This document shows positions 13,840-39,720 of a stretch of DNA of 64,000 nt, one piece after another. The first letter of the stretch is position 1; every line of letters begins with the position of its first letter. The translations under genes and the position numbers were made by a program. Origin of the DNA: Coprothermobacterota bacterium. Its GTDB lineage: Bacteria > Coprothermobacterota > HKB111. Where the stretch lies: assembly GCA_037446255.1 (NCBI GenBank), contig JBBIIY010000002.1, forward strand, positions 1,353-65,352, given 5' to 3'. Under the pieces are notes generated by a model, which made no database searches, was not told the DNA's origin, and worked only from the letters and a program-made list of their open reading frames with translations.

Positions 13840-14926
13840 AAGAGTAAAGATAATAAGCAGAGCATGCGCCTTCAGAAGAAACCATACATGCACCCAAAGG
13901 ATTATCTGGGGTGCATATATTTTTGAAGTAGCGACATTCTGGCGGTTCAATTAAACCCCGAATAACTTCGTGACACTGACAACCATCAGAGTTGAATACT
14001 TCAGACTCTGGAATTATGATATCAAATTGGTGCCTTACATCAAATTCCTTGTATGAACTCTTAATACTTAAACCACTATTTGGAATTGAACCTAAACCAC
14101 GCCAGTTAGCTACATCTTCGTAAAAAATTTCATGCATGGTGCTAATTGCCCGAGTATTGCCTTCGGGTTTTACACTTCTGGAATAAGTATTGATAACCTG
14201 GGGTTTATTATCAATACATTGTCTAATCAGGCTTTCTAAACCCTTCAAAATGTCAATCGCTTCAAAACCTGATATAGCAAAAGGCATATTATACAAAGAG
14301 GGCAGAAATTCCCAGGCTAAAGAACCAATGATAGTGCTAACATGTCCGGGTCCAAGTATTCCATCAAGACTGATTTCACCAAGGTTTAGAATAGCTTTAG
14401 TTGCTGGTGGAGTTAACTTGTGCATGGAAAAAACATAATAATTAGAGATATTCTCATTAATTGCTTTTAAAATAGACGCAGCGACCAATGGTGCAGTAGT
14501 TTCAAAACCAATACCAAGAAAAATCACTTTTTTCATTTTATTCTGTTGAGCAATAAGTATAGCATCTAGAGGTGAATATACTATTCTAATATCAGCTCCC
14601 TGTGCTCTTGCTTTTTGGAGGCTTATACCATCTTTTCCGGGGACCTTCAAAAAATCTCCAAATGTAGTAACAATTACTCCTGGTAAATATGAAAGTGATA
14701 TGGAGTAATCAATCTCTCTCTGGTCGGTAACACATACCGGACATCCAGGTCCTGAAAGCATTTTAATGTTTTTAGGAAGCAATTTTCTTATACCGTGTTT
14801 AAAAATTGCTTGAGTGTGCGTACCGCAGAATTCCATAAAAGTTAAGGGTTGGACCGATAAATCAAACATATTTTTAATTATAGACTTGAATAGTGAAGGG
14901 TCTTTGTATTTAGCTATTAAATTCAT
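13832..14926 (-). CDS. hypD: Hydrogenase maturation protein HypD
   Basis: MEFCGTH, GPGCPVC, GFETT, PGHVS, CMVSSEGAC. Confidence 0.97.
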   Translation of the reverse strand: MNLIAKYKDPSLFKSIIKNMFDLSVQPLTFMEFCGTHTQAIFKHGIRKLLPKNIKMLSGPGCPVCVTDQREIDYSISLSYLPGVIVTTFGDFLKVPGKDGISLQKARAQGADIRIVYSPLDAILIAQQNKMKKVIFLGIGFETTAPLVAASILKAINENISNYYVFSMHKLTPPATKAILNLGEISLDGILGPGHVSTIIGSLAWEFLPSLYNMPFAISGFEAIDILKGLESLIRQCIDNKPQVINTYSRSVKPEGNTRAISTMHEIFYEDVANWRGLGSIPNSGLSIKSSYKEFDVRHQFDIIIPESEVFNSDGCQCHEVIRGLIEPPECRYFKNICTPDNPLGACMVSSEGACSAYYLYSYE

Positions 14927-14932
14927 TATTTT

Positions 14933-15142
14933 TTACTCCAGTTTGTCAAGCAAAGAAATTGTTTCCAGGGCTTCTTCTTCAGTCATCAAACTGATGGCAT
15001 AACCCGCATGGACAATTACATAATCTTCTACCTTAGCCTCAGGGGTAAAAAGAAGACTGATTGTTCTGTATAGATCACCAAAGTCTACCATGGCTTCTTC
15101 TCCTGAAATGGAGACTATTTTAGCAGGAACTGCTACGCACAT
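14933..15142 (-). CDS. hypC: Hydrogenase chaperone HypC
   Basis: MCVAVPAK, VIVHAGYA. Confidence 0.96.
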   Translation of the reverse strand: MCVAVPAKIVSISGEEAMVDFGDLYRTISLLFTPEAKVEDYVIVHAGYAISLMTEEEALETISLLDKLE

Positions 15143-17423
15143 AAGCTATCACCGCCTGTCCTAAAGAAATACCACCATCGTTAGTGGGAACATTTTTATG
15201 AATATATACTTCAAAACCCTGGTTTTGAAGTTGTAGAATTGTCTTTTTTAACAGGAGTTTGTTTTGAAAACAACCTCCACTAAGAGTAACCTTGTTTAAA
15301 CCATAATTCTTTCTTATCAATTCAGAAACATTTAAAGCTATTTTTGCCAGAGTATTATGAAAACGGTTACCTATCACCCCTTTATCTATGCCTTTATGAT
15401 TATCATCAAGGAGGTAACTCAGTAGCGAGTCTAACTTGATAACCAGGTGATTCCCTGTTTCTTTCAGGTTAAATGGATAATAGTCTGCGTTACTATTTGA
15501 TTTTCCTTCGGATAACATTTCCAGTTCAATTGCCGCCTGACCTTCGTAAGTAACCTTCTGGCAGATGTTTAATATGCTGGATACAGCATCAAACAGTCTT
15601 CCGCAAGAGGAAGTTAGAAAAGTATTATATTTATTATCAATCTGTTGAATTATCAAGTTAATTTCCTCATTATCAGTATATTTGAAAATTTCAAGGTTTT
15701 CAGGTAATTTTCCCAGTAAAGCGTACATATAAGAAATAGCAGTCCTGTATGGTTTTTTTACAGAAATATCTCCTCCCGGTAAAGGAAGGTACTCTAAGTG
15801 AGAAACTCTCTCAAACACATGGAAATCAGCTACCAAAAATTCACCACCCCATAAATTACCATCTAACCCATAACCAACTCCATCAAAAGATATGCCAATG
15901 ACTCTTTCATTCAAACCATTATCTACCATGCAGGAGGTTGTGTGAGCATAATGGTGTTGTATGGGGATAAGTCTGGATTTAGCAGAAAGACTTTGGCTGT
16001 ACAAAGTGGAGAAATAATCCGGATGTAAATCGTAAGCTACGGTGTCAGGCTCAAGCCTAAAAAGCTTTTTATAAATATCTATGTTTCTCTGGTAGTTAGT
16101 ATAAGTTTGATAATCCTCTAAATCACCATTATGCTGGCTTACAAAGGCATACCCATCTTTGATAAAAGTGAAACTGTTTTTTAGATCTGCACCGCAAGCT
16201 AACACTACAGAAGGTGATTTAAAATTAAGTTTTAAAGCGGTAGGTGAATATCCGCGAGCTTTTCTGATGGGGTAAGCTTTATTTTCAAACAGAGTTAAAA
16301 CGCTGTCATCATAACAGGCATGGATATCCCGATTGTGCATGAGAAAGTAATCAGCCATTATATTTAACCTTTCTAGCGCTTCCTCATTAGTAAAAGCAAT
16401 AGGTTCTTCAGATAAATTTCCACTGGTCATTACCAATGGGTTCTGGTATTCATTCAGAAGAAGGTGGTGTAATGGTGTATAGGGAAGCATAACTCCCAGA
16501 TAGTTGTTATTTGGAGCTATAGAAGAAGCGATAGTAGTGTTATTTTTCTTTTTTAGAAGAACTATAGGAGCCTGTGGTGAGGAAAGAAGTTTAATCTCTT
16601 CATCATTTATATAACAATATTTTTTTATATCTTCCAGATTTTTCATCATCAGGGCAAAGGGTTTATATGGTCTATTCTTTCTTTTCCTGAGAAGCTCTAC
16701 CACCTCATTATTTTGCGCATCACAGGTTAACTGAAATCCTCCAAGTCCTTTGATGGCTAAGATTTTTCCTTCTTTTAAATAATTAATGGTGTTTCTAAGT
16801 GGAACATCAGTTTTTATTTCTTCCCCATGTTTATCGGTAAGTATCAAGTTGGGGCCACAAATAGGGCAAGCATTTGGCTGAGCATGAAAACGACGGTGTA
16901 AGGGATTATGATATTCCTCATTACACTGTGGACACATGGTGAAAATAGACATGGTAGTTTTAGCCCGGTCGTATGGTATATCCTGGATAATAGTAAAACG
17001 GGGACCACAATTTGTACAGTTAATAAAGGGATACTGGTATCTTCTATCATCAGTGTCAAATAATTCGTCCAGGCAATCTTTACAGATAGCAATATCAGGT
17101 GAGATTAATTGATAACCATCATCATCCCTGCTTTTTCTTATTTCAAAAGTTGAATAATATTTAGTTTTCAGTTCTTGAATAGTTATTTCTTCAATTCTTG
17201 ATAATGGAGGAGCTTCGGAAGTTATGGTTTTTATAAATTCATCTAAAGCTTGTTTTACAGCCTCAGCTTCAATTTCTACCCCGTTAGAAGTGTTAATTAT
17301 GTATCCTTTAACCTGATATTTTTGGGCAAGCCTGTAGATGAAGGGACGAAAACCTACACCCTGCACGATTCCTTTTATCAGTATTCTTTTTAATTCAAAT
17401 TGTGGTAAAGCCAATTTACCCAT
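15120..17423 (-). CDS. hypF: Carbamoyltransferase HypF
   Basis: GIVQGVGFRP acylphosphatase motif, CTNCGPR zinc fingers, QHHYAH, PTNDGGISLGQ. Confidence 0.97.
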   Translation of the reverse strand: MGKLALPQFELKRILIKGIVQGVGFRPFIYRLAQKYQVKGYIINTSNGVEIEAEAVKQALDEFIKTITSEAPPLSRIEEITIQELKTKYYSTFEIRKSRDDDGYQLISPDIAICKDCLDELFDTDDRRYQYPFINCTNCGPRFTIIQDIPYDRAKTTMSIFTMCPQCNEEYHNPLHRRFHAQPNACPICGPNLILTDKHGEEIKTDVPLRNTINYLKEGKILAIKGLGGFQLTCDAQNNEVVELLRKRKNRPYKPFALMMKNLEDIKKYCYINDEEIKLLSSPQAPIVLLKKKNNTTIASSIAPNNNYLGVMLPYTPLHHLLLNEYQNPLVMTSGNLSEEPIAFTNEEALERLNIMADYFLMHNRDIHACYDDSVLTLFENKAYPIRKARGYSPTALKLNFKSPSVVLACGADLKNSFTFIKDGYAFVSQHNGDLEDYQTYTNYQRNIDIYKKLFRLEPDTVAYDLHPDYFSTLYSQSLSAKSRLIPIQHHYAHTTSCMVDNGLNERVIGISFDGVGYGLDGNLWGGEFLVADFHVFERVSHLEYLPLPGGDISVKKPYRTAISYMYALLGKLPENLEIFKYTDNEEINLIIQQIDNKYNTFLTSSCGRLFDAVSSILNICQKVTYEGQAAIELEMLSEGKSNSNADYYPFNLKETGNHLVIKLDSLLSYLLDDNHKGIDKGVIGNRFHNTLAKIALNVSELIRKNYGLNKVTLSGGCFQNKLLLKKTILQLQNQGFEVYIHKNVPTNDGGISLGQAVIAYVRSSSC

Positions 17424-18037
17424 TCCTGCAGTCCTTCACCTGTTTTGCAGGAGGTTCTAATAATAGGTGCTCTGATATTTACTGCTCTAATACCTTTTTC
17501 AAAATATTCATAGTTATAATCATTTGGATTAATCAGGTCAATTTTATTTAATAGAATAACATCCGCTACAGAAAATATTTTTGGATATTTATATGGTTTA
17601 TCATCGCCTTCAGGAACGCTAGAGATAATTATTTTATAGTTTTCTCCTAAATCATAAGGTGCTGGACATACCAGGTTACCAACATTTTCAATAAAAAGAA
17701 GCTTATAAGTATGGTCTTTAACTTCAGAGAGTATGTTTTTAATCATAGAAGCTGTAAGATGACAGCTTCCACCTGTGTTTATTTGCAGCGCATCAAATCC
17801 GTTTTCTTTTATTTTTTGAGTGTCAATAGAAGAAGCGATATCGCCTTCTATGACTAATACTTGATGTTTAATTAATTTAAGAGCACCCAGAATAAGACTG
17901 GTTTTTCCCGCTCCAGGAGAAGCCATAATATTAAAAGCTGTTATTCGCCATGCTGCTAAAAACTGCCTTACTTCCTGGGCATTTAAATTATTCTTAGATA
18001 AAATGTCTTTATTAAGTTTAATTTGCATCGGTTTCAT
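17390..18037 (-). CDS. hypB: Hydrogenase nickel incorporation GTPase HypB
   Basis: SPGAGKT, IEGD, CHL, ENVGNLVCP, EGDDKP, NKID. Confidence 0.96.
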   Translation of the reverse strand: MKPMQIKLNKDILSKNNLNAQEVRQFLAAWRITAFNIMASPGAGKTSLILGALKLIKHQVLVIEGDIASSIDTQKIKENGFDALQINTGGSCHLTASMIKNILSEVKDHTYKLLFIENVGNLVCPAPYDLGENYKIIISSVPEGDDKPYKYPKIFSVADVILLNKIDLINPNDYNYEYFEKGIRAVNIRAPIIRTSCKTGEGLQEWVNWLYHNLN

Positions 18038-18362
18038 CGATTAATTCTATGCTTTCTATCTCTAATTCTCTACCTGCTCCATATTCAGTAATAGTTTTGC
18101 CGCAAAAAGGGCATATCCAATCATCAGTTTTAAAATAAACCCCACATTTATCACATAATAGTGAAGCCTCAATAATTTCGTAATGTATTTTGGCTCCCTC
18201 CAGGCTACTATTTTGAGAAATATTATCTAAATAGAAAAGTAATGATTCTGGTGAAACACTGGAAAACTCACCTATTCGCAGGTTCAATTGTTTGATTTTT
18301 TTTCCAGTTGACTCTCTATGGCAAATTTCTATTATTTCCCTGGCTAAGGAAAGCTCATGCAT
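18018..18362 (-). CDS. hypA: Hydrogenase nickel chaperone HypA
   Basis: MHELSLA, two CxxC motifs, GRELEI. Confidence 0.95.
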   Translation of the reverse strand: MHELSLAREIIEICHRESTGKKIKQLNLRIGEFSSVSPESLLFYLDNISQNSSLEGAKIHYEIIEASLLCDKCGVYFKTDDWICPFCGKTITEYGAGRELEIESIELIDETDAN

Positions 18363-18365
18363 AAT

Positions 18366-18842
18366 TTAACCGGTCCAGTTCTCTACCAGGTAAGTTATTT
18401 TTTCTGTTGCTTGTTTAGTCAGTATTTGAGTCATAGGGCTTAATCCTTCTCCTAAGTCAAAATCATATCCCTTAATGGACATAATATACCCTTTGGCAGA
18501 AGAACCGTATAGCTGTTTAGCAAGAGTCAATATGGTAGAAGGGCTAAGGGTATGAGAAAAACCAGGTCCTCTTCCTTCCTGGCTTATCTCCTTCAAAAAG
18601 ATATCCGAGACATCATCTTCAACTGAAGAATCAACAAAAATAACCAGCTTATAGGCACTGACAGTTTCTATCAGCTCTAAACCGAGCTCCTGTTGTATTA
18701 TAAAATCTGCAGGGAGATTACCAGGGAGAGACTCAACAGCTATAATACCTGCTCCATCATCTCTCCTGGCTGTATTCCCATATCCAATTATTAAACAGTA
18801 GTTCTTTTTGTTTGGTATATTTTCTATGTTATTATCTGTCAG
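18366..18842 (-). CDS. [NiFe]-hydrogenase maturation endopeptidase (HoxW-like); non-canonical start
   Basis: The frame extends 82 codons upstream of the ORF-track start and contains IGYGNTARRDDGAG, VIFVD and SH. No ATG/GTG/TTG precedes these motifs; CTG at 18842 is the likely start. Confidence 0.85.
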   Translation of the reverse strand: MTDNNIENIPNKKNYCLIIGYGNTARRDDGAGIIAVESLPGNLPADFIIQQELGLELIETVSAYKLVIFVDSSVEDDVSDIFLKEISQEGRGPGFSHTLSPSTILTLAKQLYGSSAKGYIMSIKGYDFDLGEGLSPMTQILTKQATEKITYLVENWTG

Positions 18843-18849
18843 AACCCTT

Positions 18850-20277
18850 TTATCCTTCTCTCTTTACTGTATCAAGAAGTATACCGTCGGTTGATTTCAG
18901 TTCTACCAGAAGGGGCATTTTCCCTATAGCATGGGTAGAACAAGAGAAACAGGGGTCATAACACCTTATAGCCCCTTCAACCATGTTAAGCATACCTTCT
19001 TTAAGCTTTTTACCATCTACGAAATTTTTAGCAACATCATCAACTGCCTTAGAAATTGCCCAGTTATTGTGTCCGGTAGAAACTATTAAATTCGCTTTTT
19101 GCATAACACCGTCTTCATCAATCCAGTAGTGGTGAATTAAAGTGCCTCTGGGAGCTTCTACAACACCCACTCCCTGGGTTTGAAGTTCTCCAGATATAGC
19201 AATAATGTCGCTAGATAGTACATCGGGGTCATTAAGTATTTGACCAACTCTTTCAGCCGAGTAAAGTAATTCAATCAGCCTGGCATAATGATAGACGAGT
19301 GAACCTTCAAGTGGCTTACCATTACCTAACGATTTATAGGTTTTCAATTCCTCGTTAGCCAGGGGCGTGGTAATCTTTTCAGCATTATTCACCCTGGCCA
19401 AGGGTCCTACACGATAAACGCCTTCCGGATAACCCAGTTTCTTATAATAAGGGAATTTTAGATATGACCAATCTTCTACTCTTTCTTCAATATAATCAAG
19501 ATAGTTAGCTGGTTTAAATCTTTCCCTAACTTTCCCTTCCGAATCTACTAATTTTAAAGTGCCATCATAAAGCTCAAGACTATCACCCTCATTTACTAAT
19601 CCAAGGTATCCACTGGGAAATTTGCCAAACTTTTCTATTGTATCCATATTAGCTCCTATCCAGGTCTTAGCAATAGAAATGCCTTCCTGAATATAAGCAA
19701 TCATGGTATCTAATTCTGAAAGAATGCTATCTCTAACTTCAGCAGAAAGCTGTGTATTTACCCCGCCTGGAACAGCAAAGGTGGGGTGGATTCTTCTTCC
19801 AGCAACTTTAGCAATGATTTCCTGTCCATATTTGCGTAGCTTGACCGCTTTTAAAGCTAATTCCGGGTTAGCTAAAACTAATCCTACCACATTTCTTAAT
19901 GCAGGATCGCTGTCCCAACCTAATAAAAGGTCTGGACCTGCAAGATGAAAGAAATGCATGGCGTGAGATTGAACATATTGACCCATATGTACGAGTTCGC
20001 GTAATAATTTTGCTGGCTTTGGGGGTTCTACACCAATTAAAGCATCGCAAGCTTTAGCGGCTGCTAAATGGTGACTTACAGGGCATATCCCACAAATACG
20101 CGGTGTTATTTGAGGCATTTCAAAATAAGGTCTTCCCTGGGTGAATTTTTCAAAACCTCTAAATTGGTCAACATTTACAAAAGTTTTATCTACCTTCCCG
20201 TAATCATTTAGATAAATGGTAACTCTGGCATGGCCTTCTATTCTGGTAACTGGTGAAATAGTTATTTTTTCGCCCAT
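18850..20277 (-). CDS. Group 3 [NiFe]-hydrogenase large subunit (HoxH/HydL-like)
   Basis: TRIEGH, L1 RICGIC, EAPRGTL, L2 DPCFSCSTH followed by a cleavable C-terminal tail. Confidence 0.96.
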   Translation of the reverse strand: MGEKITISPVTRIEGHARVTIYLNDYGKVDKTFVNVDQFRGFEKFTQGRPYFEMPQITPRICGICPVSHHLAAAKACDALIGVEPPKPAKLLRELVHMGQYVQSHAMHFFHLAGPDLLLGWDSDPALRNVVGLVLANPELALKAVKLRKYGQEIIAKVAGRRIHPTFAVPGGVNTQLSAEVRDSILSELDTMIAYIQEGISIAKTWIGANMDTIEKFGKFPSGYLGLVNEGDSLELYDGTLKLVDSEGKVRERFKPANYLDYIEERVEDWSYLKFPYYKKLGYPEGVYRVGPLARVNNAEKITTPLANEELKTYKSLGNGKPLEGSLVYHYARLIELLYSAERVGQILNDPDVLSSDIIAISGELQTQGVGVVEAPRGTLIHHYWIDEDGVMQKANLIVSTGHNNWAISKAVDDVAKNFVDGKKLKEGMLNMVEGAIRCYDPCFSCSTHAIGKMPLLVELKSTDGILLDTVKREG

Positions 20278-20286
20278 AGGTTCCTC

Positions 20287-20832
20287 CTAATCATATTTTA
20301 GTAAATCACCCTTTAAAACAGGTACTCTTCCTTCCAGCAATTCTTTAAGAGCAGTATAGATAGAATCAGCTGGAGGTGGGCAACCAGGTATAAAGAAATC
20401 AACTTTTACAATATCTTTAACTGCTTTTACTTTGGGGAGTAATTTGCCAAGTTCATCTGAGGTGGGAATTTTACCATTTTTAGTACTTTCTGTATCAATA
20501 TACCCTCTGGTAAGAAGTTCTTCTTTGCTAAAGTAGTTGCGCATGGTGGCAATTCCACCAAAAACAGCACAGTCTCCGATAGCGATTAATATTTTACATT
20601 TTTTTCTCAAATGTCTGGCTTCTTCTTCGTGAAGGTCTGTTCCAATAGCGCCTTCAATAATTCCAATATCTACCCCTTCTTCGGGTGGATGTTTTAAGTC
20701 AGTTACAGGAGTGGAGGTGAACTCCACGCCTGCCTGAATTAATTCAACAATTCTTTCGTCCATGTCAAGTATAGACATATGACAACCTGCACATGCTTCT
20801 AACCAGGTTGATGCAAGTTTGACTTTTGCCAC
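20287..20832 (-). CDS. [NiFe]-hydrogenase small subunit (HoxY/HydS-like, single cluster)
   Basis: ACAGCHMS, GDCA, IPGCPP; no signal peptide. Confidence 0.94.
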   Translation of the reverse strand: MAKVKLASTWLEACAGCHMSILDMDERIVELIQAGVEFTSTPVTDLKHPPEEGVDIGIIEGAIGTDLHEEEARHLRKKCKILIAIGDCAVFGGIATMRNYFSKEELLTRGYIDTESTKNGKIPTSDELGKLLPKVKAVKDIVKVDFFIPGCPPPADSIYTALKELLEGRVPVLKGDLLKYD

Positions 20833-20843
20833 TTTATCCTCCT

Positions 20844-22550
20844 TTAACCTAAAGCTTTAATTAGATCTTCAATAATGGCTTTGTCTGTTTTCACACCTTC
20901 GGGAGCTTCAATGATTGATGAAATAATCTGAGTTTTACCTTCTAAGTTGGTGATGGTTCCCGAGGTTTCCAGCCAGGTTGCAGAAGGAATAATTAAGTCT
21001 GCTCTTTCAGTCAGGGGTGAAACAAAATTGCTTATTACAATTAAATAACCAATATCTTTTAAGGAAGCCAGCAGGTTAGAGTCACCGCTGGAGTCAGAAG
21101 CTACTATTAAGGATACATCACTTTTACCAAAAGTACTATTTAATCCTTGCTTAACTGCTCCCATAGAGTTTGCTGACTTATAAAGTGGAAGAAAAACGGC
21201 TTTAACTTTCTCAAGAGTTTCTAAATCTGTTGATTCAACCTGGGGATTCAGAATTACGACAACTTTATTATTATTCCCGAGGGTGTTGACTAATTTACCA
21301 GCCTCGGAGGTCTTGAAGATTTCTGAAGCATAAAAGGATAAGGAATTTTCATCATCAGTAACAATATAGAGTTTAGCATCATTGGTTACTGCTCTTTTCA
21401 CCCAGGAAGCAACTACTCCGTGAGAAGTTGAGGGGTCAACTTTATAAAGTACTATAGCTTCTGCAGTAAGTATGTCTTCCAGGCAGCCATCACTGGATAG
21501 TTCAATTACCTTCTCGTTGTAATTTTCCATTAAACCAGTATTTTTAGATTTGAGAGAAGTTGAGAAAAGTTGATTAAAGACTTCAAGAGCTTCATTGGTA
21601 GCTTTAGGGCTAATAAGTCCGCCCGGGTTTTTAGCTTCTTTAAGTTTTAAAGCAGCTTTTTTAATAACATCCTCGTAAGTTATTAGTTCTCTTTTACCTT
21701 CTTGCCTGATTATTGGATGAGATACTCTTTTTCTTTTTTCATATAAGGGTGTAAATCTACCAAGTTCACAGAGGATTCCATGATTAACAGAAGATTCCCA
21801 ATCGCCCCAAATTTTTATCAAATGATTTGCTTTAGTAAAAGCTAAAATTCCACAACCCATACTACAGTTAGCACATACAGATTTTGTTTTTGTCATTTCT
21901 GCAGTTTTGCCTAGATAAGCACCAATCTTATCAGATAAGGAACCAGTAGGACATACTTGCACACAAACACCGCAGGAAACGCACGACGAAGCTTTAAGAG
22001 GACTTTCCATATCAGGTGAAAGCATGGTATGTGCGCCACGATTAACCATACCTAAAACATAGTGACCGGCCAAGTCTGAACAGGCACGAACGCATCTTCT
22101 ACATAGAATGCAGCGGTTGTGTTCTAACAGTATATATTTGTGTCCGAAGTCGGTAGGGAATTTATTCTGGTAAGGTGAGAAGGCAAAGTGGTCTATACCA
22201 TACCGATATCCCATATTTTGTAGTTCACAGTCTCCCGATACTTCGCAGTACATACAATAGTGGTTTCTTTCAGCAAATAGCAGGTTAAGAATAAACTTTC
22301 GTGTTTCTACAACCCGAGGTGATTCTGTTTCTACTTCTAAACCTTGAGTAGCTGGAAGAGTGCAAGCAGGTTGCAGTGTACCTTGCTTGGTTTCTACCAC
22401 ACAAAGCCTGCAGGCTCCAATAGGGTTCAATTGGTCATGATGGCATAAGGTGGGAATGTCTATACCAAAAGTCTTAGCTGCCTGCAATACTGTTAAACCT
22501 GGGTCTACTTCTATTTCATTTCCATTAATTTTTAACAATAATTTTCCCAT
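20844..22550 (-). CDS. NuoG/HydA-like Fe-S subunit with catalytically empty molybdopterin-oxidoreductase-like tail
   Basis: [2Fe-2S] CRLC, HYCMYC, two 4Fe-4S motifs (CILCRRC, CVSCGVC) and CANCSMGC. No H-cluster motifs. ATG 22550 follows GGAGG. Confidence 0.88.
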   Translation of the reverse strand: MGKLLLKINGNEIEVDPGLTVLQAAKTFGIDIPTLCHHDQLNPIGACRLCVVETKQGTLQPACTLPATQGLEVETESPRVVETRKFILNLLFAERNHYCMYCEVSGDCELQNMGYRYGIDHFAFSPYQNKFPTDFGHKYILLEHNRCILCRRCVRACSDLAGHYVLGMVNRGAHTMLSPDMESPLKASSCVSCGVCVQVCPTGSLSDKIGAYLGKTAEMTKTKSVCANCSMGCGILAFTKANHLIKIWGDWESSVNHGILCELGRFTPLYEKRKRVSHPIIRQEGKRELITYEDVIKKAALKLKEAKNPGGLISPKATNEALEVFNQLFSTSLKSKNTGLMENYNEKVIELSSDGCLEDILTAEAIVLYKVDPSTSHGVVASWVKRAVTNDAKLYIVTDDENSLSFYASEIFKTSEAGKLVNTLGNNNKVVVILNPQVESTDLETLEKVKAVFLPLYKSANSMGAVKQGLNSTFGKSDVSLIVASDSSGDSNLLASLKDIGYLIVISNFVSPLTERADLIIPSATWLETSGTITNLEGKTQIISSIIEAPEGVKTDKAIIEDLIKALG

Positions 22551-22552
22551 TT

Positions 22553-24172
22553 TTATAACCTCCCACATTTATTTGCTGGGCAATATCCAGTTTCTATGTG
22601 ATTTATAAATTCACTTTTAAAGTATTTTAAAGATTCAAGTATCTGGTTGGCAGCTGCCTGACCTAATCCACAAAATGAGGTATTTTTCATAACATTAGCT
22701 AAGTTTTCCATGAAATCAAGCTCATTAATTTCAACATTTCCAGAAGTAACCCTGTTAAGTAGATCTAAAGCTTTTGGTAAACCTACTCTACAGGGAACGC
22801 ACTTACCGCAGGATTCGTGATTGAAAAATGCGAGTAGATTTTTTAGGAAATCTATTACACACCTGGTTTCGTCTAAAACAAGAATTGCTCCAGAGCCCTG
22901 CCCTGCTCCGATTTTCCTTACAGAATTCCAATCAATTGGAACATCCAGGTGGTCGGGTGTGATAAAGCTTCCTGAGCTACCGCCAAGTTGAACTAATTTA
23001 AGGTTTTTACCACCTTTGATGCCGTAACCGATTTCGTATATAAGTTCTTTCAAAGTAAATCCAAAAGGTACCTCTATTACTCCTTTAGCATTTACATCTC
23101 CAAAAAGGGTGAACACTTTAGTTCCTCTTGAGCCTTCAACACCCAGACTTCTATACCATTCAGCACCTTTTAAAATAATAAGCGGTATGTTTGCGAGAGT
23201 TTCCACATTATTTATAACTGTTGGTTTTGCCCATAAACCTTCAGTGGAAGGATAAGGTGGTTTTGAACGAGGTTCTCCTCTCTTGCCTTCCAAAGATTCC
23301 ATTAAAGCAGTTTCTTCACCACATACATAAGAACCTGCACCTATTCTTACTTCTACATCAAAATCAAAATTAGTCCCTAATATATTATTCCCCAATAATC
23401 CAATTTCTTTTGATTGTTTAATGGCCAAGTTTAATCTGTCAATAGAGAGATCGTATTCTCCGCGTACATAAATAAACCCTTTATTAGCCCCAACAGCATA
23501 GCCTGCAATACTCATAGATTCAATGATAGAATGAGGATCACCTTCCATAATCACTCTATCTTTAAAAGTACCCGGCTCTCCTTCATCTGCGTTACAAATA
23601 ATATATTTTGGTTTTGCCAGGGCTTTAGCTGTTAATTCCCACTTAAAACCTGTAGGAAATCCCGCACCACCACGGCCTAATAGTTCTGAAGCTTTCACTT
23701 CGGCAATTACCTGCTCTGGTGTCATTGTTGATAAAACATGAGCTAAAGCTTGATAACCATCGTGGGCAATATACTCTTTAATATCTTCAGGGTTAATGAG
23801 TCCAACATTTCTTAGAATAATACGAGTTTGTTTCTTCATTATTTCTTCTTCAATTGGAACATCCATTTTCACTTTTGCTGGTAAGTCAATTTCATACATT
23901 AATTTTTTTACAGGTCTTCCTTTGAGGAAATGCTCTTCAACCAAATAAGGTATATCATCTATATTATTTATTACATAGACAAGTCCACCTGGATAAACAG
24001 TTAATTGCACTCCTTCTTCAATTCCCCAGCCACCGGTTCTAAGAATTTGCACCTCGTTTTCTAATCCTTTTTTGATGATTTCTTCCTTAAGTTTTGTTTC
24101 AACTTCAAAAGCTCCTCTAAGTATGCTTCTGGAATCGGTACTTAACAAAACATGAAGTCTATAAATTTTCAT
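22553..24172 (-). CDS. NuoF/HydB-like flavoprotein 2 (NADH-binding) with cysteine-free N-terminal thioredoxin-like domain
   Basis: GRGGAGFPTG, NADEGEPGTFKDR, CGEET, CGKCVPC; no C-terminal ferredoxin domain. Confidence 0.9.
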   Translation of the reverse strand: MKIYRLHVLLSTDSRSILRGAFEVETKLKEEIIKKGLENEVQILRTGGWGIEEGVQLTVYPGGLVYVINNIDDIPYLVEEHFLKGRPVKKLMYEIDLPAKVKMDVPIEEEIMKKQTRIILRNVGLINPEDIKEYIAHDGYQALAHVLSTMTPEQVIAEVKASELLGRGGAGFPTGFKWELTAKALAKPKYIICNADEGEPGTFKDRVIMEGDPHSIIESMSIAGYAVGANKGFIYVRGEYDLSIDRLNLAIKQSKEIGLLGNNILGTNFDFDVEVRIGAGSYVCGEETALMESLEGKRGEPRSKPPYPSTEGLWAKPTVINNVETLANIPLIILKGAEWYRSLGVEGSRGTKVFTLFGDVNAKGVIEVPFGFTLKELIYEIGYGIKGGKNLKLVQLGGSSGSFITPDHLDVPIDWNSVRKIGAGQGSGAILVLDETRCVIDFLKNLLAFFNHESCGKCVPCRVGLPKALDLLNRVTSGNVEINELDFMENLANVMKNTSFCGLGQAAANQILESLKYFKSEFINHIETGYCPANKCGRL

Positions 24173-24175
24173 CTT

Positions 24176-24640
24176 TTATTCCTCCATATAAGCATCAAGA
24201 ATCTCAGGTAACTGTGTAACAGTAACATTTTTATAAATATCACTATCTACCATCATGACCGAAGCTAAGCTACATAATCCAAGGCAGGATTGTTCTTCAA
24301 GAGTGAACTGACCATCACAAGTTGTTTCTCCAATACCTAAATTTAATTTCTCACTTATAGCTTCAACTAATGAATCATACTCTTCAAGTTTACAGGGAGG
24401 GCTAGAACATATTTTGATAATATGTTTTCCTCTGGGTTTTAGCGAGAACATAGAGTAAAAGCTTGCTGTAGAGTAAAGTGAACTAACTGGTATTTTAAGT
24501 TCCTTACTTACAGTTTTTAAAACTTCAGCAGGTAAATAATTATCAGAGAATAAATTTTGAATTTTATGTAATAAAGTTAGCAAAGGTTCCCCGGTCTCTT
24601 TATATTCCCTGATCAATTGTCCTACTTCTTCATTCTTCAT
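24176..24640 (-). CDS. NuoE/HydC-like [2Fe-2S] subunit 2
   Basis: ASFYSMF, CSSPPC, CLGLC. Confidence 0.9.
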   Translation of the reverse strand: MKNEEVGQLIREYKETGEPLLTLLHKIQNLFSDNYLPAEVLKTVSKELKIPVSSLYSTASFYSMFSLKPRGKHIIKICSSPPCKLEEYDSLVEAISEKLNLGIGETTCDGQFTLEEQSCLGLCSLASVMMVDSDIYKNVTVTQLPEILDAYMEE

Positions 24641-27600
24641 CTGTAACCTCCTTTACATCACATCTTAAACATCTACCACATTCAGTTATAACCTGTTTAG
24701 AGTTAAAAGATTTAACAACTTCTTTAAAATTACTTATTCTTTTAGCAGAAGAAAGCATTTCGGGTTCTTGCCTTTTAACCGGAACTTCTTCCTCGGGTGG
24801 AATTGCAAAAGCAAAGTCGTAAACTGTTTTAAGTTGAGAAAGCCGATCTTCACCACCATTAAAGAAAGCATCAATAGTTTTAGCAAACCTCTTTCCTTGA
24901 GACATAGAACCACTGACTGTGGCTGGACCGGTTACTACATCTCCTCCAGCATAAACCATAGGAATAGAACTTTCCAAAGTGTGGTGGTTAACAATAACCT
25001 GCCCATTCTTGGCTAATTGAATTCCAATTTCCATGAGTAAGCCTTCGGTTTCTATGGATTGTCCAACAGCAAGAATGACAGTATCACAATACTTCAATAT
25101 TTCCTCGTTAGTAGCAATAGGGACTCTTCTTCCGTTGTCGTCAAAATAACCGAGTGTCATTTTTGCGTATTTGATAGCTGTTACTTTACCATTTTCACCG
25201 ACTATGGAGGTGGGCGCACCTAATAAAATAAAATTAATGCCTTCATGTTCAGCTTCTTCAATTTCTCTGTGGTCAGCAGGCATATCTTCTTTTTCTCTGC
25301 GATAAAGAATGGTTACTTCCTTTGCTCCCAATCTTAGAGAAGACCTAGCTGCATCTATTGCCACATTACCTCCACCAATTACTACTACTCTTTCTCCTAT
25401 AACTATGGTTTCATTGCTATTCACCTTATCTAAAAATTCCAAACCTGACCAGACTCCATTAAGGTTACTTCCATCAATCTTCAGTGTTTGCCCCTTAGAG
25501 GCTCCTATGGCAACCAAAACTGCTGCGTATCCTTCGCGTTTTAGTTCTTCAAGGCTGATATCAATACCTATTTTGGTGTTTAGTTTAATATCTACTCCTA
25601 AATCGGTAATATTTTTTATTTCTTTCCTGAGTATTTCTTTAGGAAGTCTATATTCAGGTATAGCATACCTTAACATACCCCCAGCTTCACTTTTTGCCTC
25701 AAAAATAGTTACCTTATATCCAAGTTTAGCTAAGAAATAACCGGCTGTTAAACCTGCAGGTCCTGACCCTACGATAGCAACTCGGTGATTATTAGATGCG
25801 AGTTTCTTTACCCCTCTCTCTTTTAAATACAGCTGATACTCGTCCCAATGGCTGTAAACATAATCAACAATATATCTTTTAACATCATCAATAGCTACAG
25901 GAGTATCAACTTGATTTCTTCTACATACATGTTCACATGGACGATGACATACCCTTCCACAAATTGCTGGAAGAGGGTTCTCTTCTATTATCACACTGTA
26001 AGCATCAAATATTTTACCTTCAAGACAGAGCTGTAAATAAGCAGGAACATTCAAGTTGATAGGACATTCGTTTTCACAGGGAGATATCATTAGAGAATCA
26101 CAAACACCAGCAGGGCAACGCTTATCAATGATATGAGTTTCATATTCTTTTCGGAAATGTTTCAAAGTTGATAAAACTGGATTAGGAGCAGTTTGGCCTA
26201 ATCCACATAGAGATGTCTGCTTTATCATTAAGCCAATAGATTCAATTAAATCAAGGTCTTCCAGTTTTCCTTGCCCACGTGTTATTCTATTTAATATTTT
26301 TAATAATTCACGTGTACCCACCCGACAGGGAGGGCATTTACCGCAAGATTCATCAGCCGTAAAGGTTAGGAAAAATTTTGCTAAATCTACCATGCAACTT
26401 GAATTGTCAACGACTATTAACCCCCCTGATCCCATAATAGCCCCTATAGCTGCAAGAGATTCAAAGTCTAAGGGGGTATTTATCATATGAGAAGGAATGA
26501 CACCGCCAGATGGACCCCCAGTTAAAGCTGCTTTAAATTTTTCTCCTTTGGGGATACCTCCACCGATTTCATAAATAACATCTTTTAAGGGAAGTCCCAT
26601 CGGAATTTCTACCAATCCAGAGTTATTTACTTTTCCCGCAAGTGCGAAAACCTTGGTACCCGGCGATTTTTCCGTACCCATGCTCCTAAACCATTGAAAC
26701 CCGTGAAATATAATCAAGGGTATATTAGCTAAGGTCTCCACATTATTTATTACGGTTGGTTTATCCCATAGTCCTTTTTGAGCAGGATAAGGTGGTCTTG
26801 GTCTAGGCTCTCCTCTTTTACCTTCAATTGAAGCTAATAGAGCTGTTTCCTCTCCACATACAAAAGCTCCAGCTCCGATTCTAATCTCAATATCAAAGTT
26901 AAATCCACTGTTTAATATATTGCTGCCTAAAAGACCTTTATTTTTTGCTTCCTTTATAGCCCATTCCATCCTTTCTATAGCCAGAGGATATTCAGCTCTT
27001 ACATATACATATCCTTTGGTAGCACCAATAGCATAGGCGGCAATAGTCATTCCTTCAATTACGGAATAAGAACTACCTTCAAGTATACTCCTATCCATAA
27101 ATGCTCCTGGATCTCCTTCGTCAGCATTACAAATTATGTATTTCGGTGAGCCTTCAGCTTTACTGCAGAATTCCCATTTTAACCCGGTGGGAAATCCTGC
27201 TCCACCACGACCTCTAAGCCCTGAAGTTTTAATTTCTTCAATGACCTGTTGAGGAGACATCTCGTAAAGAGCTTTTGCTAAAGCGAAGTAGCCATCACGA
27301 GCGATGTATTCTTCTATCTTATAAGGGTCAATAGTTCCGCAGTTTTGAAGAACAAACCTTGCCTGTTTTTTAAAGAAAGGAACCTCATCTATTGTTGGAA
27401 TAACCTGGTCTTTTCCTGGTTCCGTAAAAAGCAATCTTTCAACTAATCTACCTTTCAAGAAATGCTCTTCAACGATATCTTTTATATCTTCAGTACCGAC
27501 TTTTCTATAGATAACGCCTTCGGGATAAATAAGTATCAAAGGTCCCTGTTCACAAGCTCCGCGACATCCTGTTTCAATTACCTGAACTTCATCGCTGAGG

Positions 27601-27707
27601 TTATAGTTTTGTAATTGTTCATTCAAAGCCTCTTCTAATGTCTTTGAGCCTGAACTGATACAACCCGTACCAGCGCAAACCAAAGCATGTATTCTAAATA
27701 ATTTCAT
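24630..27707 (-). CDS. NuoF/HydB-like flavoprotein 1 fused to a GltD/NfnB-like FAD/NADP(H) oxidoreductase
   Basis: N-terminal CAGTGC...GCRGAC, NADEGDPGAFMDR, CGKCPPC and H..CPAGVC; then PCENECP, CGRVC, GSGPAG, GGGNVA, YRR and C-terminal RCLRC. Confidence 0.92.
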   Translation of the reverse strand: MKLFRIHALVCAGTGCISSGSKTLEEALNEQLQNYNLSDEVQVIETGCRGACEQGPLILIYPEGVIYRKVGTEDIKDIVEEHFLKGRLVERLLFTEPGKDQVIPTIDEVPFFKKQARFVLQNCGTIDPYKIEEYIARDGYFALAKALYEMSPQQVIEEIKTSGLRGRGGAGFPTGLKWEFCSKAEGSPKYIICNADEGDPGAFMDRSILEGSSYSVIEGMTIAAYAIGATKGYVYVRAEYPLAIERMEWAIKEAKNKGLLGSNILNSGFNFDIEIRIGAGAFVCGEETALLASIEGKRGEPRPRPPYPAQKGLWDKPTVINNVETLANIPLIIFHGFQWFRSMGTEKSPGTKVFALAGKVNNSGLVEIPMGLPLKDVIYEIGGGIPKGEKFKAALTGGPSGGVIPSHMINTPLDFESLAAIGAIMGSGGLIVVDNSSCMVDLAKFFLTFTADESCGKCPPCRVGTRELLKILNRITRGQGKLEDLDLIESIGLMIKQTSLCGLGQTAPNPVLSTLKHFRKEYETHIIDKRCPAGVCDSLMISPCENECPINLNVPAYLQLCLEGKIFDAYSVIIEENPLPAICGRVCHRPCEHVCRRNQVDTPVAIDDVKRYIVDYVYSHWDEYQLYLKERGVKKLASNNHRVAIVGSGPAGLTAGYFLAKLGYKVTIFEAKSEAGGMLRYAIPEYRLPKEILRKEIKNITDLGVDIKLNTKIGIDISLEELKREGYAAVLVAIGASKGQTLKIDGSNLNGVWSGLEFLDKVNSNETIVIGERVVVIGGGNVAIDAARSSLRLGAKEVTILYRREKEDMPADHREIEEAEHEGINFILLGAPTSIVGENGKVTAIKYAKMTLGYFDDNGRRVPIATNEEILKYCDTVILAVGQSIETEGLLMEIGIQLAKNGQVIVNHHTLESSIPMVYAGGDVVTGPATVSGSMSQGKRFAKTIDAFFNGGEDRLSQLKTVYDFAFAIPPEEEVPVKRQEPEMLSSAKRISNFKEVVKSFNSKQVITECGRCLRCDVKEVTDEE

Positions 27708-27729
27708 AATTACACTCCTTAAACTAAAA

Positions 27730-28092
27730 CTAAGAAGATCTGATTACCCAATCTCCGATTATCTGGCTGTTAATTACATGTTCAACAACAATTCTTTTTG
27801 CCATTTCCATAGTTACCAGTCCATAAGTAACTTTAGGAAGACCAGGTTTTTCAACCGTTAAAAGAGGCTCTTTAGCATCAAGCCCAATAGAACCGGTTTG
27901 TAAAATTTCAACATCGCTGAAGTTTCTTGTTTCTAATTCATTAACTATTGTTTTGAGAACTTCTCGAGCTCCAGAAGCAATACCAGTTGTTCCCATGCCA
28001 ATGGTTATCTTCACTCTTTCTCCTTTATCTCTGATTTTCATATCATCTCTGATCTGGTCTCTTAATTTCTTTAAATCTTCTAATGACTTCAT
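27730..28092 (-). CDS. HydD-like thioredoxin-fold ferredoxin homolog lacking all cysteines
   Basis: GMGTTGIASGA and TGSIGLDAKEP align to the family motifs GxxTCGIAxGA and GCxGxCxxEP. ATG 28092 follows GGAGG. Confidence 0.8.
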   Translation of the reverse strand: MKSLEDLKKLRDQIRDDMKIRDKGERVKITIGMGTTGIASGAREVLKTIVNELETRNFSDVEILQTGSIGLDAKEPLLTVEKPGLPKVTYGLVTMEMAKRIVVEHVINSQIIGDWVIRSS

Positions 28093-28093
28093 T

Positions 28094-28630
28094 TCAATTA
28101 CCTCCATACAGATTTTTAAGATTATTTTCAAGATAACTTTCTAACATTTTTAACACTTCAGGATGGTTAATTGGAACATCTTCAAGCAAGGCCTTATATT
28201 CTTGAGAGTCAAATACAAATAACTTTTCTTCACAAATATGCTCATATTTAAGATTAATTTCAGGGTGAAGCGTGATAAAAGTAATAATAGTAGATACGAT
28301 ATTCCCTAACGGTGGAAGGTCAATGCAACCTTTAGGTAGTTTAAAAGATATTTTTGTGCCTGAATCTGGCTTGCTTTGAATGTCCATATTACCCTGACAA
28401 AGAGTTACGATTTCATTAATAAAAGGTAAGCCTAAACCGATTTTTTTATTTTTTGAAGAATAAAAAGGGTCAAGTAATCTGTTTGGATTACCACTAATTC
28501 CTGATCCGTCATCCTTTAATTCAACATGAATTTTATTAATATTTTCATTAATTACCAGCAAAACATTATTCGCTCTGGCAGCAGCAGAGTTTTCTAATAA
28601 GTCTAGAATATTCAGAGAAAGTTCTTTCAA
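28094..28630 (-). CDS. Stand-alone HATPase_c (histidine-kinase-like ATPase) of hydrogenase operons
   Basis: ENS N-box, DDGSG, DPFYSSK, GLGLP, DLPPLG. Confidence 0.88.
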   Translation of the reverse strand: MKELSLNILDLLENSAAARANNVLLVINENINKIHVELKDDGSGISGNPNRLLDPFYSSKNKKIGLGLPFINEIVTLCQGNMDIQSKPDSGTKISFKLPKGCIDLPPLGNIVSTIITFITLHPEINLKYEHICEEKLFVFDSQEYKALLEDVPINHPEVLKMLESYLENNLKNLYGGN

Positions 28631-29115
28631 GAATAGGTTTCTATAATTGCTTTAACTTTTACAGGTGTCAGACGTCCGTAAACTTCTTTTCCAATGGTCA
28701 TTACCGGAGCCAAACCACAAGCCCCCAGGCACCTAAGCAGTTCTAAAGAAAATTTACGGTCTTCTGTGGTATCACCCTCTTGAATACCTAAAGATTTCTT
28801 GATAGTATCTAGAACTAATCTGCCACCCCTCACATAACATGCGGTTCCCAGGCAGACAGCGACAGGGTATTTTCCTCTAGGCTTCATGGTAAAAAAATTA
28901 TAAAAAGTTACTATGCCATAAACTTCTTTTACAGGAATATGCATTTTGTCTGATATAAATTTTATTACTTCTCTGGGTAAAAAACCAATTAAATTTTGAG
29001 TTTCATAAAGAACAGCAATTAAAGCACCCTTTCGTACTGCATATTTGTCAACAATTATCTCAATCTGGTCTTTGTATTCATCAAGCTCAGTAGTTTTTGT
29101 ATCAGCTTCATTCAC
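28627..29115 (-). CDS. NuoE/HydC-like [2Fe-2S] subunit 1
   Basis: VTFYNFF, CLGTAC, CLGACGLAP; GTG start 9 nt after AGGAGG. Confidence 0.92.
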   Translation of the reverse strand: MNEADTKTTELDEYKDQIEIIVDKYAVRKGALIAVLYETQNLIGFLPREVIKFISDKMHIPVKEVYGIVTFYNFFTMKPRGKYPVAVCLGTACYVRGGRLVLDTIKKSLGIQEGDTTEDRKFSLELLRCLGACGLAPVMTIGKEVYGRLTPVKVKAIIETYS

Positions 29116-29148
29116 TTCATGTGTCCTCCTATAATTAAATTCCTTAAA

Positions 29149-29177
29149 ATTGTAAAGATGTTATTCAAAAATGTCAA
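29149..29177 (-). promoter_or_regulatory. Sigma70 promoter of the hydrogenase operon
   Basis: TTGACA-17 nt-TACAAT on the minus strand, upstream of hydC1. Confidence 0.75.
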
Positions 29178-39716: not shown

Positions 39717-39720
39717 TCTT

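Follow-up and report, generated by a model that had tools for sequence, protein, structure and literature searches.

The stretch of DNA considered here, hereafter the window, comprises 64,000 nucleotides (nt) of contig JBBIIY010000002.1 (positions 1,353 to 65,352 of the forward strand; GenBank assembly GCA_037446255.1) from a Coprothermobacterota bacterium of the HKB111 lineage. Its minus strand carries a [NiFe]-hydrogenase operon in which nine genes, hydC1 to hydL, run head to tail from 29115 to 18850, as read from the list of open reading frames (ORFs) and their translations; neighbouring genes overlap or are separated by at most 22 nt. Besides one gene each for HydA, HydS and HydL, the operon encodes two contrasting HydB/HydC pairs, referred to below as heads, one of which is fused to a GltD-type NAD(P)H/flavin adenine dinucleotide (FAD) module. 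On balance, we take the product to be a soluble [NiFe] hydrogenase related to the Bfu enzymes, of the HydABCSL type of Acetomicrobium mobile (A. mobile), in which a single HydA-HydS-HydL core would be served by two diaphorase heads. A preliminary description, made from the sequence alone, had listed the same nine genes followed by a protease and hypABFCDE, and had pointed out the two pairs; the gene order is borne out by translations, Pfam and NCBIfam, and the pairs by Pfam and alignments (Table 1).

Table 1. Features of the operon and of the adjoining maturation genes (positions in the window; aa, amino acids).
Feature	Position	Strand	Description
sigma-70-like promoter candidate	29149..29177	-	TTGACA-17-TACAAT, 11/12 consensus positions
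hydC1	28627..29115	-	162 aa; NuoE/HoxE-like, thioredoxin-like [2Fe-2S] subunit; PF01257, 1.9e-49
HATPase gene	28094..28630	-	178 aa; stand-alone HATPase_c protein, equivalent of 'hisK' in HydABC operons; PF02518, 3.1e-12
hydD	27730..28131	-	133 aa; no cysteine
hydB1, entire	24630-27707	-	1025 aa
hydB1, NuoF/BfuB part	26094..27707	-	residues 1-538; Complex1_51K, SLBB, NADH_4Fe-4S (Pfam)
hydB1, GltD/NfnL-like part	24630..26093	-	residues 539-1025; PF14691, 1.8e-22; PF07992, 3e-35
hydC2	24176..24640	-	154 aa; second NuoE-like [2Fe-2S] subunit; PF01257, 1.2e-42; 11-nt overlap with the hydB1 stop
hydB2	22553..24172	-	539 aa; Complex1_51K and NADH_4Fe-4S only (Pfam)
hydA	20844..22568	-	574 aa; 2Fe-2S, NuoG-type clusters, Molybdop_Fe4S4, partial Molybdopterin domain; no H-cluster
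hydS, [NiFe] small subunit	20287..20832	-	181 aa; Oxidored_q6, PF01058, 2.4e-29
hydL, [NiFe] large subunit	18850..20277	-	475 aa; NiFeSe_Hases; RICGICPVSH and DPCFSCSTH; C-terminal extension
hydrogenase maturation protease	18366..18842	-	TIGR00072, 54 bits, above cut-off
hypA	18018-18362	-	HypA (Pfam)
hypB	17390-18037	-	cobW/HypB (Pfam)
hypF	15120-17423	-	HypF domains (Pfam)
hypC	14933-15142	-	HupF_HypC (Pfam)
hypD	13832-14926	-	HypD (Pfam)
hypE	12823-13950	-	AIRS/AIRS_C (Pfam)

The identical fifteen-gene order is present in G010, a genome of another genus of the same family (also locus L179), with 52-83% amino-acid identity; since both order and sequence are kept there, the operon is not a chance pattern. 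The single promoter that the preliminary description placed ahead of hydC1 is less certain. A site matching the sigma-70 consensus does lie within the 66-nt gap 5' of this gene, 34 nt from its GTG, and is the top-scoring one across 12.5-30.5 kb; however, the total number of such sites does not exceed that in shuffled sequences (62 observed versus 59.8), and the hydC1 site is a consensus match only.

The catalytic core

The closest solved relative of HydL is the A. mobile subunit 7t2r_D (561 bits); the NAD-reducing hydrogenase 5xf9_D reaches 432 bits, and Mvh/Frh-type subunits reach about 405-422 bits. HydA is likewise closest to 7t2r_A (275 bits), with which the cysteines of all five cluster motifs align; it is NuoG-like and has no H-cluster, and HydS and HydL are group 3 subunits nearest to their A. 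mobile counterparts. Among the NCBIfam models no hydrogenase family passes its cut-off for the core, the best ones being VhuA for HydL and VhuG for HydS, both below it; the HoxE and HoxU models are below cut-off too. Because HydL and HydA are closest to 7t2r subunits and no NCBIfam model reaches its cut-off, the core is classified by sequence as HydABCSL (NiFe-Bfu) type, not Hox.

The HoxEFUYH enzymes, the soluble NAD+-reducing hydrogenases of group 3d (5xf9), are also cytoplasmic [NiFe] enzymes with a NuoE/F-type diaphorase. Unlike them, the operon encodes neither a HoxU-sized iron-sulfur (Fe-S) subunit nor a HoxH-type large subunit: its HydA is a NuoG-like protein of 574 aa with a molybdopterin-like domain, whereas HoxU has roughly 240 aa. 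The preliminary description had held that Hox and NiFe-HydABCSL enzymes have one HydB/HydC pair each. For Hox, which carries one such pair only, this is general background. For the A. mobile enzyme it agrees with PMC8880783, where a single pair is described, with a HydB ending in the ferredoxin-reducing B3/B4 domain. The operon thus departs from the five-subunit, single-pair composition by encoding two pairs, but it resembles that of A. mobile in that HydA is NuoG-like and lacks an H-cluster, HydS is short, and genes like hisK and hydD are included.

HydL is the sole PF00374 gene of the genome, which is 95.9% complete, and on present evidence H2-derived reducing power enters metabolism wholly through the HydL-containing enzyme. 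The genome is small, and H2-driven acetogenesis or glycine reduction has been described for its closest named relatives.

Two contrasting heads

The NiFe-HydABCSL enzyme of A. mobile (7t2r/7t30) also provides the best solved relative of both HydB proteins. HydB1 and HydB2 match 7t2r_B with 797 and 614 bits, respectively, are both 52-63% identical to the solved HydB, and align to it gap-free, so that A. mobile residue numbers can be used. As in the preliminary description, the translations read EGDPGAFM and GGPSG in HydB1 (ADEGDPGAFM in full; GGPSG at 397-401), and EGEPGTFK and GGSSG in HydB2 (ADEGEPGTFK in full). Its interpretation of this contrast as bifurcating versus non-bifurcating matches the literature: bifurcating subunits have Ala/Met and GGPSG, non-bifurcating ones Thr/Lys without GGPSG (Losey 2020, PMC7311640), and A202/M204 are Bfu-specific residues (Schut 2022, PMC9304861).

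HydB1 has A202, M204, F282 and F340 at its flavin mononucleotide (FMN)/NAD(H) site, the four cysteines of the N-terminal [2Fe-2S] cluster B5 (C11, C16, C48, C52), the C455/C458/C461 motif of the [4Fe-4S] cluster B1, and all four hinge (B2/Zn) ligands (C438, H525, C531, C536); the four cysteines of the HydC1 cluster motif are visible as well. Thus, NAD(H)-site residues, GGPSG, B1, B5, hinge and HydC [2Fe-2S], the core features of Bfu enzymes, are all found in HydB1/HydC1, while the C-terminal ferredoxin-like domain with clusters B3/B4 is missing. Position 476 is occupied by Thr, a residue shared by about two-thirds of BfuB (PMC9304861); at the position called F182 by Schut 2022 there is no Phe by our count, the nearest being F180, which is Leu in HydB2. 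HydB1 is 79% identical across genera (compared with G010).

In place of B3/B4, directly after hinge Cys536, HydB1 continues with the GltD module: its likeness to 7t2r_B stops at residue 541, and Fer4_20 (539-618) and Pyr_redox_2 (642-938, also PF00070) follow. The module has the expected two [4Fe-4S] clusters through Fer4_20, an FAD fold and a second dinucleotide fold, with visible GxGxxG and GGGNxAxD motifs; a YRR motif after the second dinucleotide fold is, we presume, a cue for NADPH. It scores 494 bits against NF009410 (cut-off 516), and the gltA/gltD models also stay below cut-off. Its best solved relatives are 9bov_A (residues 102-568), the NfnA subunit 9n5u_A and 8oh5_C, followed by 5jca_L of NfnI (323 bits). 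The first three belong to NfnABC/StnABC enzymes (9bov, 9n5u, 8oh5), which also combine a GltD-like FAD/NADP(H) module with a HydB/HydC core; there, however, the module is an insertion in the A subunit that supplies the mid-potential path, and HydB retains B3/B4 as its ferredoxin arm, whereas in HydB1 it replaces B3/B4 at the C-terminus and H2 is the third substrate. With its hydrogenase subunits and without a GltD-like module on the A subunit, the operon is not of the Nfn-Bfu/Stn kind.

As a separate observation, the GltD part matches the Fer4_20 profile from position 27 onward only, and an RCLRC-type cysteine pair resembling the absent start of that profile lies at the extreme C-terminus (24630-24720, minus strand); the same holds for P0001, a fused relative described below, which hints at a permuted cluster-binding arrangement in both proteins.

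A second Bfu-type cluster lies in the window at 39267-43723 (plus strand). It encodes a HydC of 149 aa, a HydB of 652 aa that ends in a ferredoxin domain, and an A subunit of 708 aa that combines 2Fe-2S, NuoG-type clusters, Fer4_20 and Pyr_redox_2; with the GltD-like module on its A subunit and no hydrogenase, it fits the Nfn-Bfu/Stn pattern and is a candidate NADH/NADPH/ferredoxin transhydrogenase.

The homology of the GltD part to the NfnI large subunit raises the question whether ferredoxin is still a substrate of the hydrogenase, either because the GltD FAD acts as a second, NfnSL-like bifurcating flavin or because ferredoxin docks on the GltD clusters, so that H2, NAD(H), NADP(H) and ferredoxin would all be linked. 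In the NfnI large subunit bifurcation takes place at the FAD, and the two [4Fe-4S] clusters form the route to ferredoxin. Reduced ferredoxin is moreover needed for acetyl-CoA synthesis and Rnf (PMC9751293). However, the B3/B4 domain, the ferredoxin site of Bfu enzymes (PMC12018979), is absent from HydB1, and the dedicated Nfn-Bfu cluster is present; we consider a direct role of ferredoxin improbable.

HydB2, in head 2, has T202, K204, Y282 and Y340; it contains no cysteine in its first 70 residues and thus no N-terminal cluster, and it ends at residue 539, without a C-terminal ferredoxin domain. Hence the NADH-site residues, B5 and B3/B4 of Bfu enzymes are all missing, and the hinge ligands (C438, H525, C531, C536) alone are kept. 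It shows all the non-bifurcating features of Losey 2020: Thr/Ser, Lys/Ser/Ala, Tyr for Phe, no GGPSG and fewer Fe-S domains. The equivalent of T. maritima position 367 is uncertain; at both candidate positions, 282 and 340, HydB2 has Tyr where HydB1 has Phe. Hinge ligands are reported to be absent from non-bifurcating homologues (Schut 2022, PMC9304861); because HydB2 keeps them, it is by its sequence not a plain NuoF. In its Atribacterota counterparts they have been lost.

Relative to the A. mobile HydB, therefore, HydB1 has exchanged B3/B4 for a GltD NAD(P)H/FAD module, and HydB2 has neither B3/B4 nor the N-terminal cluster. HydB2 shares Thr/Lys, Tyr for Phe, the lack of GGPSG and the smaller number of Fe-S domains with non-bifurcating NADH-dependent beta subunits, and head 2 would be comparable to the NAD-only heads characterised in syntrophs. 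Unlike those beta subunits, however, it occurs with a [NiFe] end module, keeps the hinge and, in our sample, always has a bifurcating-type (BF-type) head beside it.

GltD-fused HydB in other genomes

Loci were gathered by similarity to proteins of the window, so that the following counts describe the sample and not prevalence. A search of 1.84 billion representatives returned two full-length fused relatives with intact FMN motifs, P0001 (53% identity) and P0002 (49%), and remoter fused forms with degenerate FMN sites. With HydB1 as seed 3 loci were recovered, and with P0001 292 stretches; among the best 80 of the latter, nearly all read HydC, HydB::GltD and then a HydA of about 607 aa, sampled examples of which carry an [FeFe] H-cluster domain (Pfam). 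Across the gathered loci as a whole, an [FeFe] HydA directly follows a sole GltD-fused HydB in 62 loci and a ferredoxin-type HydB in 48 more. DPGAFM and GGPSG are kept in 88 of 91 GltD-fused ORFs.

The relatives of HydL were taken as the best 80 of 112 loci and classified by hand: 26 are Methanobacterium Mvh-like and 54 bacterial, 13 of the latter with too little sequence upstream, which leaves 41 informative NiFe loci. A sole GltD-fused HydB precedes HydA-S-L in 24 of these; five have two heads (L178, L179, L181, L197, L206), two an A. mobile-like sole ferredoxin-type HydB and one a Hox-like layout, and in nine the upstream stretch contains no HydB, five of them with Fdh-like genes. The GltD-fused head is thus the commonest partner of such [NiFe] modules in this similarity-selected sample.

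These loci bear on an alternative in which HydC1 and HydB1::GltD form an independent soluble NADH:NADP+ (or ferredoxin-linked) transhydrogenase, merely co-transcribed with an NAD+-reducing hydrogenase made of HydC2, HydB2, HydA, HydS and HydL. FMN, Fe-S clusters and FAD in one chain, together with HydC, could complete a path from NAD(H) to NADP(H); the nearest solved relatives of the GltD part come from Bfu-type transhydrogenases (9bov_A, 9n5u_A, 8oh5_C), and it is a HydB2-type gene, not HydB1, that adjoins HydA in every two-head locus with a single HydA. However, the GltD-fused protein is the only HydB next to HydA in 24 NiFe and 62 FeFe loci, which argues that it is able to act as a hydrogenase diaphorase and is not a separate enzyme; sampled GltD-fused HydB proteins always stand beside a HydA-type gene where the contig is long enough, and the window already holds a separate Nfn-Bfu cluster. 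An independent transhydrogenase is, in our estimate, highly improbable.

Two further arrangements were met among these loci. In a Syntrophus metagenome-assembled genome (MAG; L207, 2254-11400) one GltD-fused HydB is followed by an [FeFe] HydA and by a NiFe-type HydA-HydS-HydL, so that a single head may serve two kinds of hydrogenase module. L184, L185, L188, L190 and L196 have Fdh-like genes upstream of close relatives of HydA-HydS-HydL and lack a neighbouring HydB/HydC, which may represent a soluble formate-linked [NiFe] hydrogenase arrangement.

Two-head loci and their phylogeny

The preliminary description proposed, as a check, to look for the gene order of the operon in other genomes. Among the loci gathered by similarity, the two-head layout recurs not only in G010 but in several phyla, and [FeFe] as well as [NiFe] modules are commonly accompanied by a GltD-fused HydB; the architecture is thus not peculiar to this genome. 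The locus search with the HydB2 alignment gave at least 600 stretches, the best 80 of which are mostly ordinary HydB and include nine complete loci of the EPG type to which HydB2 belongs. In our sample, all 15 loci with an EPG-type HydB (three from this lineage) also have an adjacent BF-type HydB on the same strand with its own HydC; on the short contig L002 only the GltD end of the BF-type HydB is seen. Such loci occur in Caldisericota (L094, L096, L181), Atribacterota (L060, partial; L076, L079, L105), Clostridia (L109, L115), Verrucomicrobiota (L167), Chloroflexota (L197, L206) and an unclassified MAG (L097). L066, from a member of the Thermoguttaceae, has a similar layout, but its second HydB is of the ferredoxin type.

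The order in two-head loci is HydC1, (HATPase), HydD, HydB1, HydC2, HydB2, HydA; a HydC1-type gene adjoins the BF-type HydB in related loci, and the HydC beside HydB2 scores best against HydC2 in most of them. The end module varies: it is an [FeFe] HydA in L079, L094, L096, L097, L105, L109 and L167, an Fdh-like module with a 900-aa protein in L076 and L115, and [NiFe] HydA-S-L in the family of the window, L181, L197 and L206. The C-terminus of HydB1 is mostly GltD, but it is a ferredoxin domain in L115, L197 and L206, and L094 and L096 have no such domain. L153, L168 and L027 contain two complete tandem sets, each with its own [FeFe] HydA. Each head type is thus found elsewhere as the sole head of a HydA.

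A maximum-likelihood tree was built from 68 HydB cores, leaving out the near-duplicates L001, L002, L084 and L085 and the later-fetched L181, L197 and L206, and keeping one-fifth of the single GltD-type rows and one-fourth of the single ferredoxin-type rows. A 100/100 branch sets the 13 EPG-type HydB apart as a clade-like group. The window groups with Caldisericota L094/L096 (100/97, 98/91), Atribacterota with L167 (100/100 each) and L109 with L115 (100/99, 100/100), in each half of the tree. Because the sister groupings recur in both halves, the two heads appear to have been inherited or transferred together. An origin of HydB2 as a recent duplicate of HydB1 can be discarded, since HydB2 groups with other EPG-type HydB across the 100/100 branch. 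A tree of [FeFe] HydA (FastTree), with many open forks, has one clear pair, L109 with the HydB2-side HydA of L168.

This constant association suggests a stricter alternative, an obligate supercomplex that needs both heads simultaneously, for example a hetero-dimer of protomers regulating or passing electrons between heads. In its favour, the sampled non-bifurcating head never occurs without a bifurcating-type head nearby (15/15; also L181, L197 and L206), the trees of the two heads are congruent, and in A. mobile the interface of the dimer of pentamers joins HydB and HydL (PMC8880783). On the other hand, a distance of over 40 A separates the cofactors of the two A. mobile protomers, and each pentamer is regarded as a functional unit (PMC8880783); the tandem loci, with their two HydA genes, likewise suggest that the enzymes are separable. 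We regard obligate cooperation of the heads as decidedly doubtful.

Proposed mechanism

In the Bfu model FMN, B1 and cluster C1 of HydC form the bifurcation site; a mobile C-terminal domain of HydC passes low-potential electrons to B3/B4, and the B3/B4 domain, where ferredoxin docks, hangs on a Cys3-His (zinc) hinge (PMC12018979). Seen against this model, head 1 (HydB1::GltD with HydC1) keeps the parts of the flavobicluster, and the B3/B4 domain is exchanged for the GltD module. Electrons would pass from H2 through HydS and the HydA clusters to B1/FMN and would have two exits, as hydride to NAD+ at FMN and through HydC1, the GltD clusters and FAD to NADP+, for which the GltD site would be selective over NAD+. 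The net reaction would be 2 H2 + NAD+ + NADP+ -> NADH + NADPH + 2 H+, the two branches being energetically coupled and ferredoxin being no direct product. Head 2 (HydB2 with HydC2), stripped and NuoF/NuoE-like, would be non-bifurcating and couple H2 to NAD+ only.

As to physical assembly, both heads would use one docking site on HydA, giving two kinds of protomer, possibly mixed in a dimer; two kinds are favoured because there is a single HydA gene and the A. mobile HydA has one HydB/C site per protomer. The A. mobile enzyme consists of two pentamers joined as a dimer (PMC8880783). At a distance of 10 kb from the operon, the Nfn-Bfu-like cluster could turn NADPH into reduced ferredoxin and NADH, and the ferredoxin would feed acetyl-CoA synthesis and Rnf.

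Several points weigh against this reading. H2 has an Eo' of -414 mV, compared with physiological E' values of about -280 mV for NAD and about -380 mV for NADP (PMC9304861, Table 1), and high H2 is reported in the habitats of this lineage (PMC9751293); since H2 is a stronger reductant than both couples and habitat H2 is high, NADP+ reduction needs no coupling, and head 1 may owe its bifurcating-type features to ancestry without making use of them. Judged from the related loci, moreover, the GltD arm is not essential to the two-head layout, because close relatives of HydB1 carry a ferredoxin domain or no C-terminal domain in its place, and the tandem sets of L153, L168 and L027 indicate that each head can have an enzyme of its own.

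The operon could then encode a plain dual NAD+/NADP+-reducing hydrogenase, with the same shared assembly and no energetic coupling, in which head 1 feeds NADP+ (perhaps also NAD+) independently. Both reductions are downhill at high H2 (PMC9304861, Table 1; PMC9751293), the reaction written in the lineage paper, 'H2 + NADP -> NADPH', implies plain reduction (PMC9751293), head 2 already lacks bifurcation features, and HydB1 relatives freely swap or lose the C-terminal arm. However, HydB1 has all the sequence features of bifurcating subunits and is strongly conserved across genera, and the retention of DPGAFM and GGPSG in nearly all GltD-fused ORFs argues for selection on those features. An uncoupled enzyme seems to us rather unlikely, and the coupled, two-headed HydABCSL-type enzyme is preferred.

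More generally, GltD-fused HydB might represent a widespread, unstudied Bfu branch with its low-potential exit at NADP+, in which the flavobicluster splits H2 or formate electrons between NAD and NADP, a nucleotide-to-nucleotide bifurcation not involving ferredoxin; the co-inherited NAD-only head would be a bypass on the shared core, and the NADH:NADPH output would be set by H2 pressure. This extension is speculative and, as a whole, rather unlikely.

Relation to published work

The GltD fusion on HydB is not a new observation, as it was noted in a genome paper (PMC6163223). The trimeric hydrogenases with HydB::GltD, for example that of Vallitalea guaymasensis (PMC6163223), have a NuoF part 53-64% identical to that of HydB1; unlike the enzyme of the window, they combine one head with an [FeFe] end module, and they too are biochemically uncharacterised. 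The lineage paper labels the enzyme 'Hox' and cites a paper on the NADPH site of glutamate synthase (PMC9751293); because of this citation, its Supplementary Results may already discuss the fusion. Searches of the open-access literature turned up no paper in which a GltD-fused HydB or a two-head Bfu enzyme had been studied biochemically or structurally, nor any biochemical description of this subunit set, in line with the preliminary description, which did not recognise the architecture as characterised. The text of the Bfu classification paper does not contain the words 'GltD', 'fused', 'fusion', 'two BfuB' or 'second BfuB', and GltD, fusion and NADPH go unmentioned in the paper on Hydrogenedentota hydrogenase (PMC11406978). 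The operon is thus a real, conserved and biochemically uncharacterised variant of the Bfu/HydABCSL hydrogenases, in which the fusion itself had been noticed before.

How one FMN and two clusters of the Bfu enzymes split electron pairs is a current puzzle in bioenergetics. A natural variant with an NADP(H) arm in place of the ferredoxin arm would be a test of what the low-potential branch requires, and a bifurcating-type and a non-bifurcating head on one catalytic core would provide another. Both features merit experiment, and they are more widely spread than the preliminary description supposed. Most sampled relatives of the NiFe enzyme carry a GltD-fused HydB and not the ferredoxin-type HydB of the sole characterised example; because of this, annotation of GltD-fused relatives as 'Hox' or as 'bifurcating NAD/ferredoxin' enzymes may be wrong.

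Accessory genes and other Bfu-related genes

Homologues of the HATPase protein occupy the equivalent position in many HydABC loci; the hisK-like HATPase of A. mobile does not belong to the holoenzyme (PMC9304861, Fig. 1 legend; PMC8880783). HydD gave no match in Pfam and NCBIfam scans, but it weakly matches residues 5-89 of HydB1 (E 9e-4), a likeness to the N-terminal domain of HydB. Its homologues have the equivalent position in most HydABC loci and measure 118-133 aa in related loci; the true start of hydD is probably at about 28092. The frame of the maturation protease (18366-18851, minus strand) is open from the hydL stop onward and contains GYGNTARRDDGAG; no ATG, GTG or TTG occurs ahead of residue 86, and translation seems to need a CTG (18842) or ATA start, or coupling to hydL.

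Three further clusters were found elsewhere in the genome. L261 (G000:C7; 3463-8001, minus strand) encodes a HydC of 156 aa, a HydB of 452 aa whose FMN-binding domain is mostly lost, and a 908-aa Fdh-like molybdopterin protein; since formate dehydrogenase is reported missing from three MAGs of this lineage from one site (PMC9751293), it may be a decaying or repurposed Fdh-Bfu cluster. In L260 (G000:C1; 5350-9039, plus strand) a HydC of 158 aa and a HydB of 626 aa directly follow CdhD, the delta subunit of acetyl-CoA synthase, with no adjacent HydA-type gene. L262 (G000:C3; 5148-8810, plus strand) encodes, two genes upstream of RnfC, a 426-aa protein with ferredoxin-type clusters and a weak Fe_hyd_lg_C match (43 bits), which is the sole [FeFe]-hydrogenase-like match in the genome.

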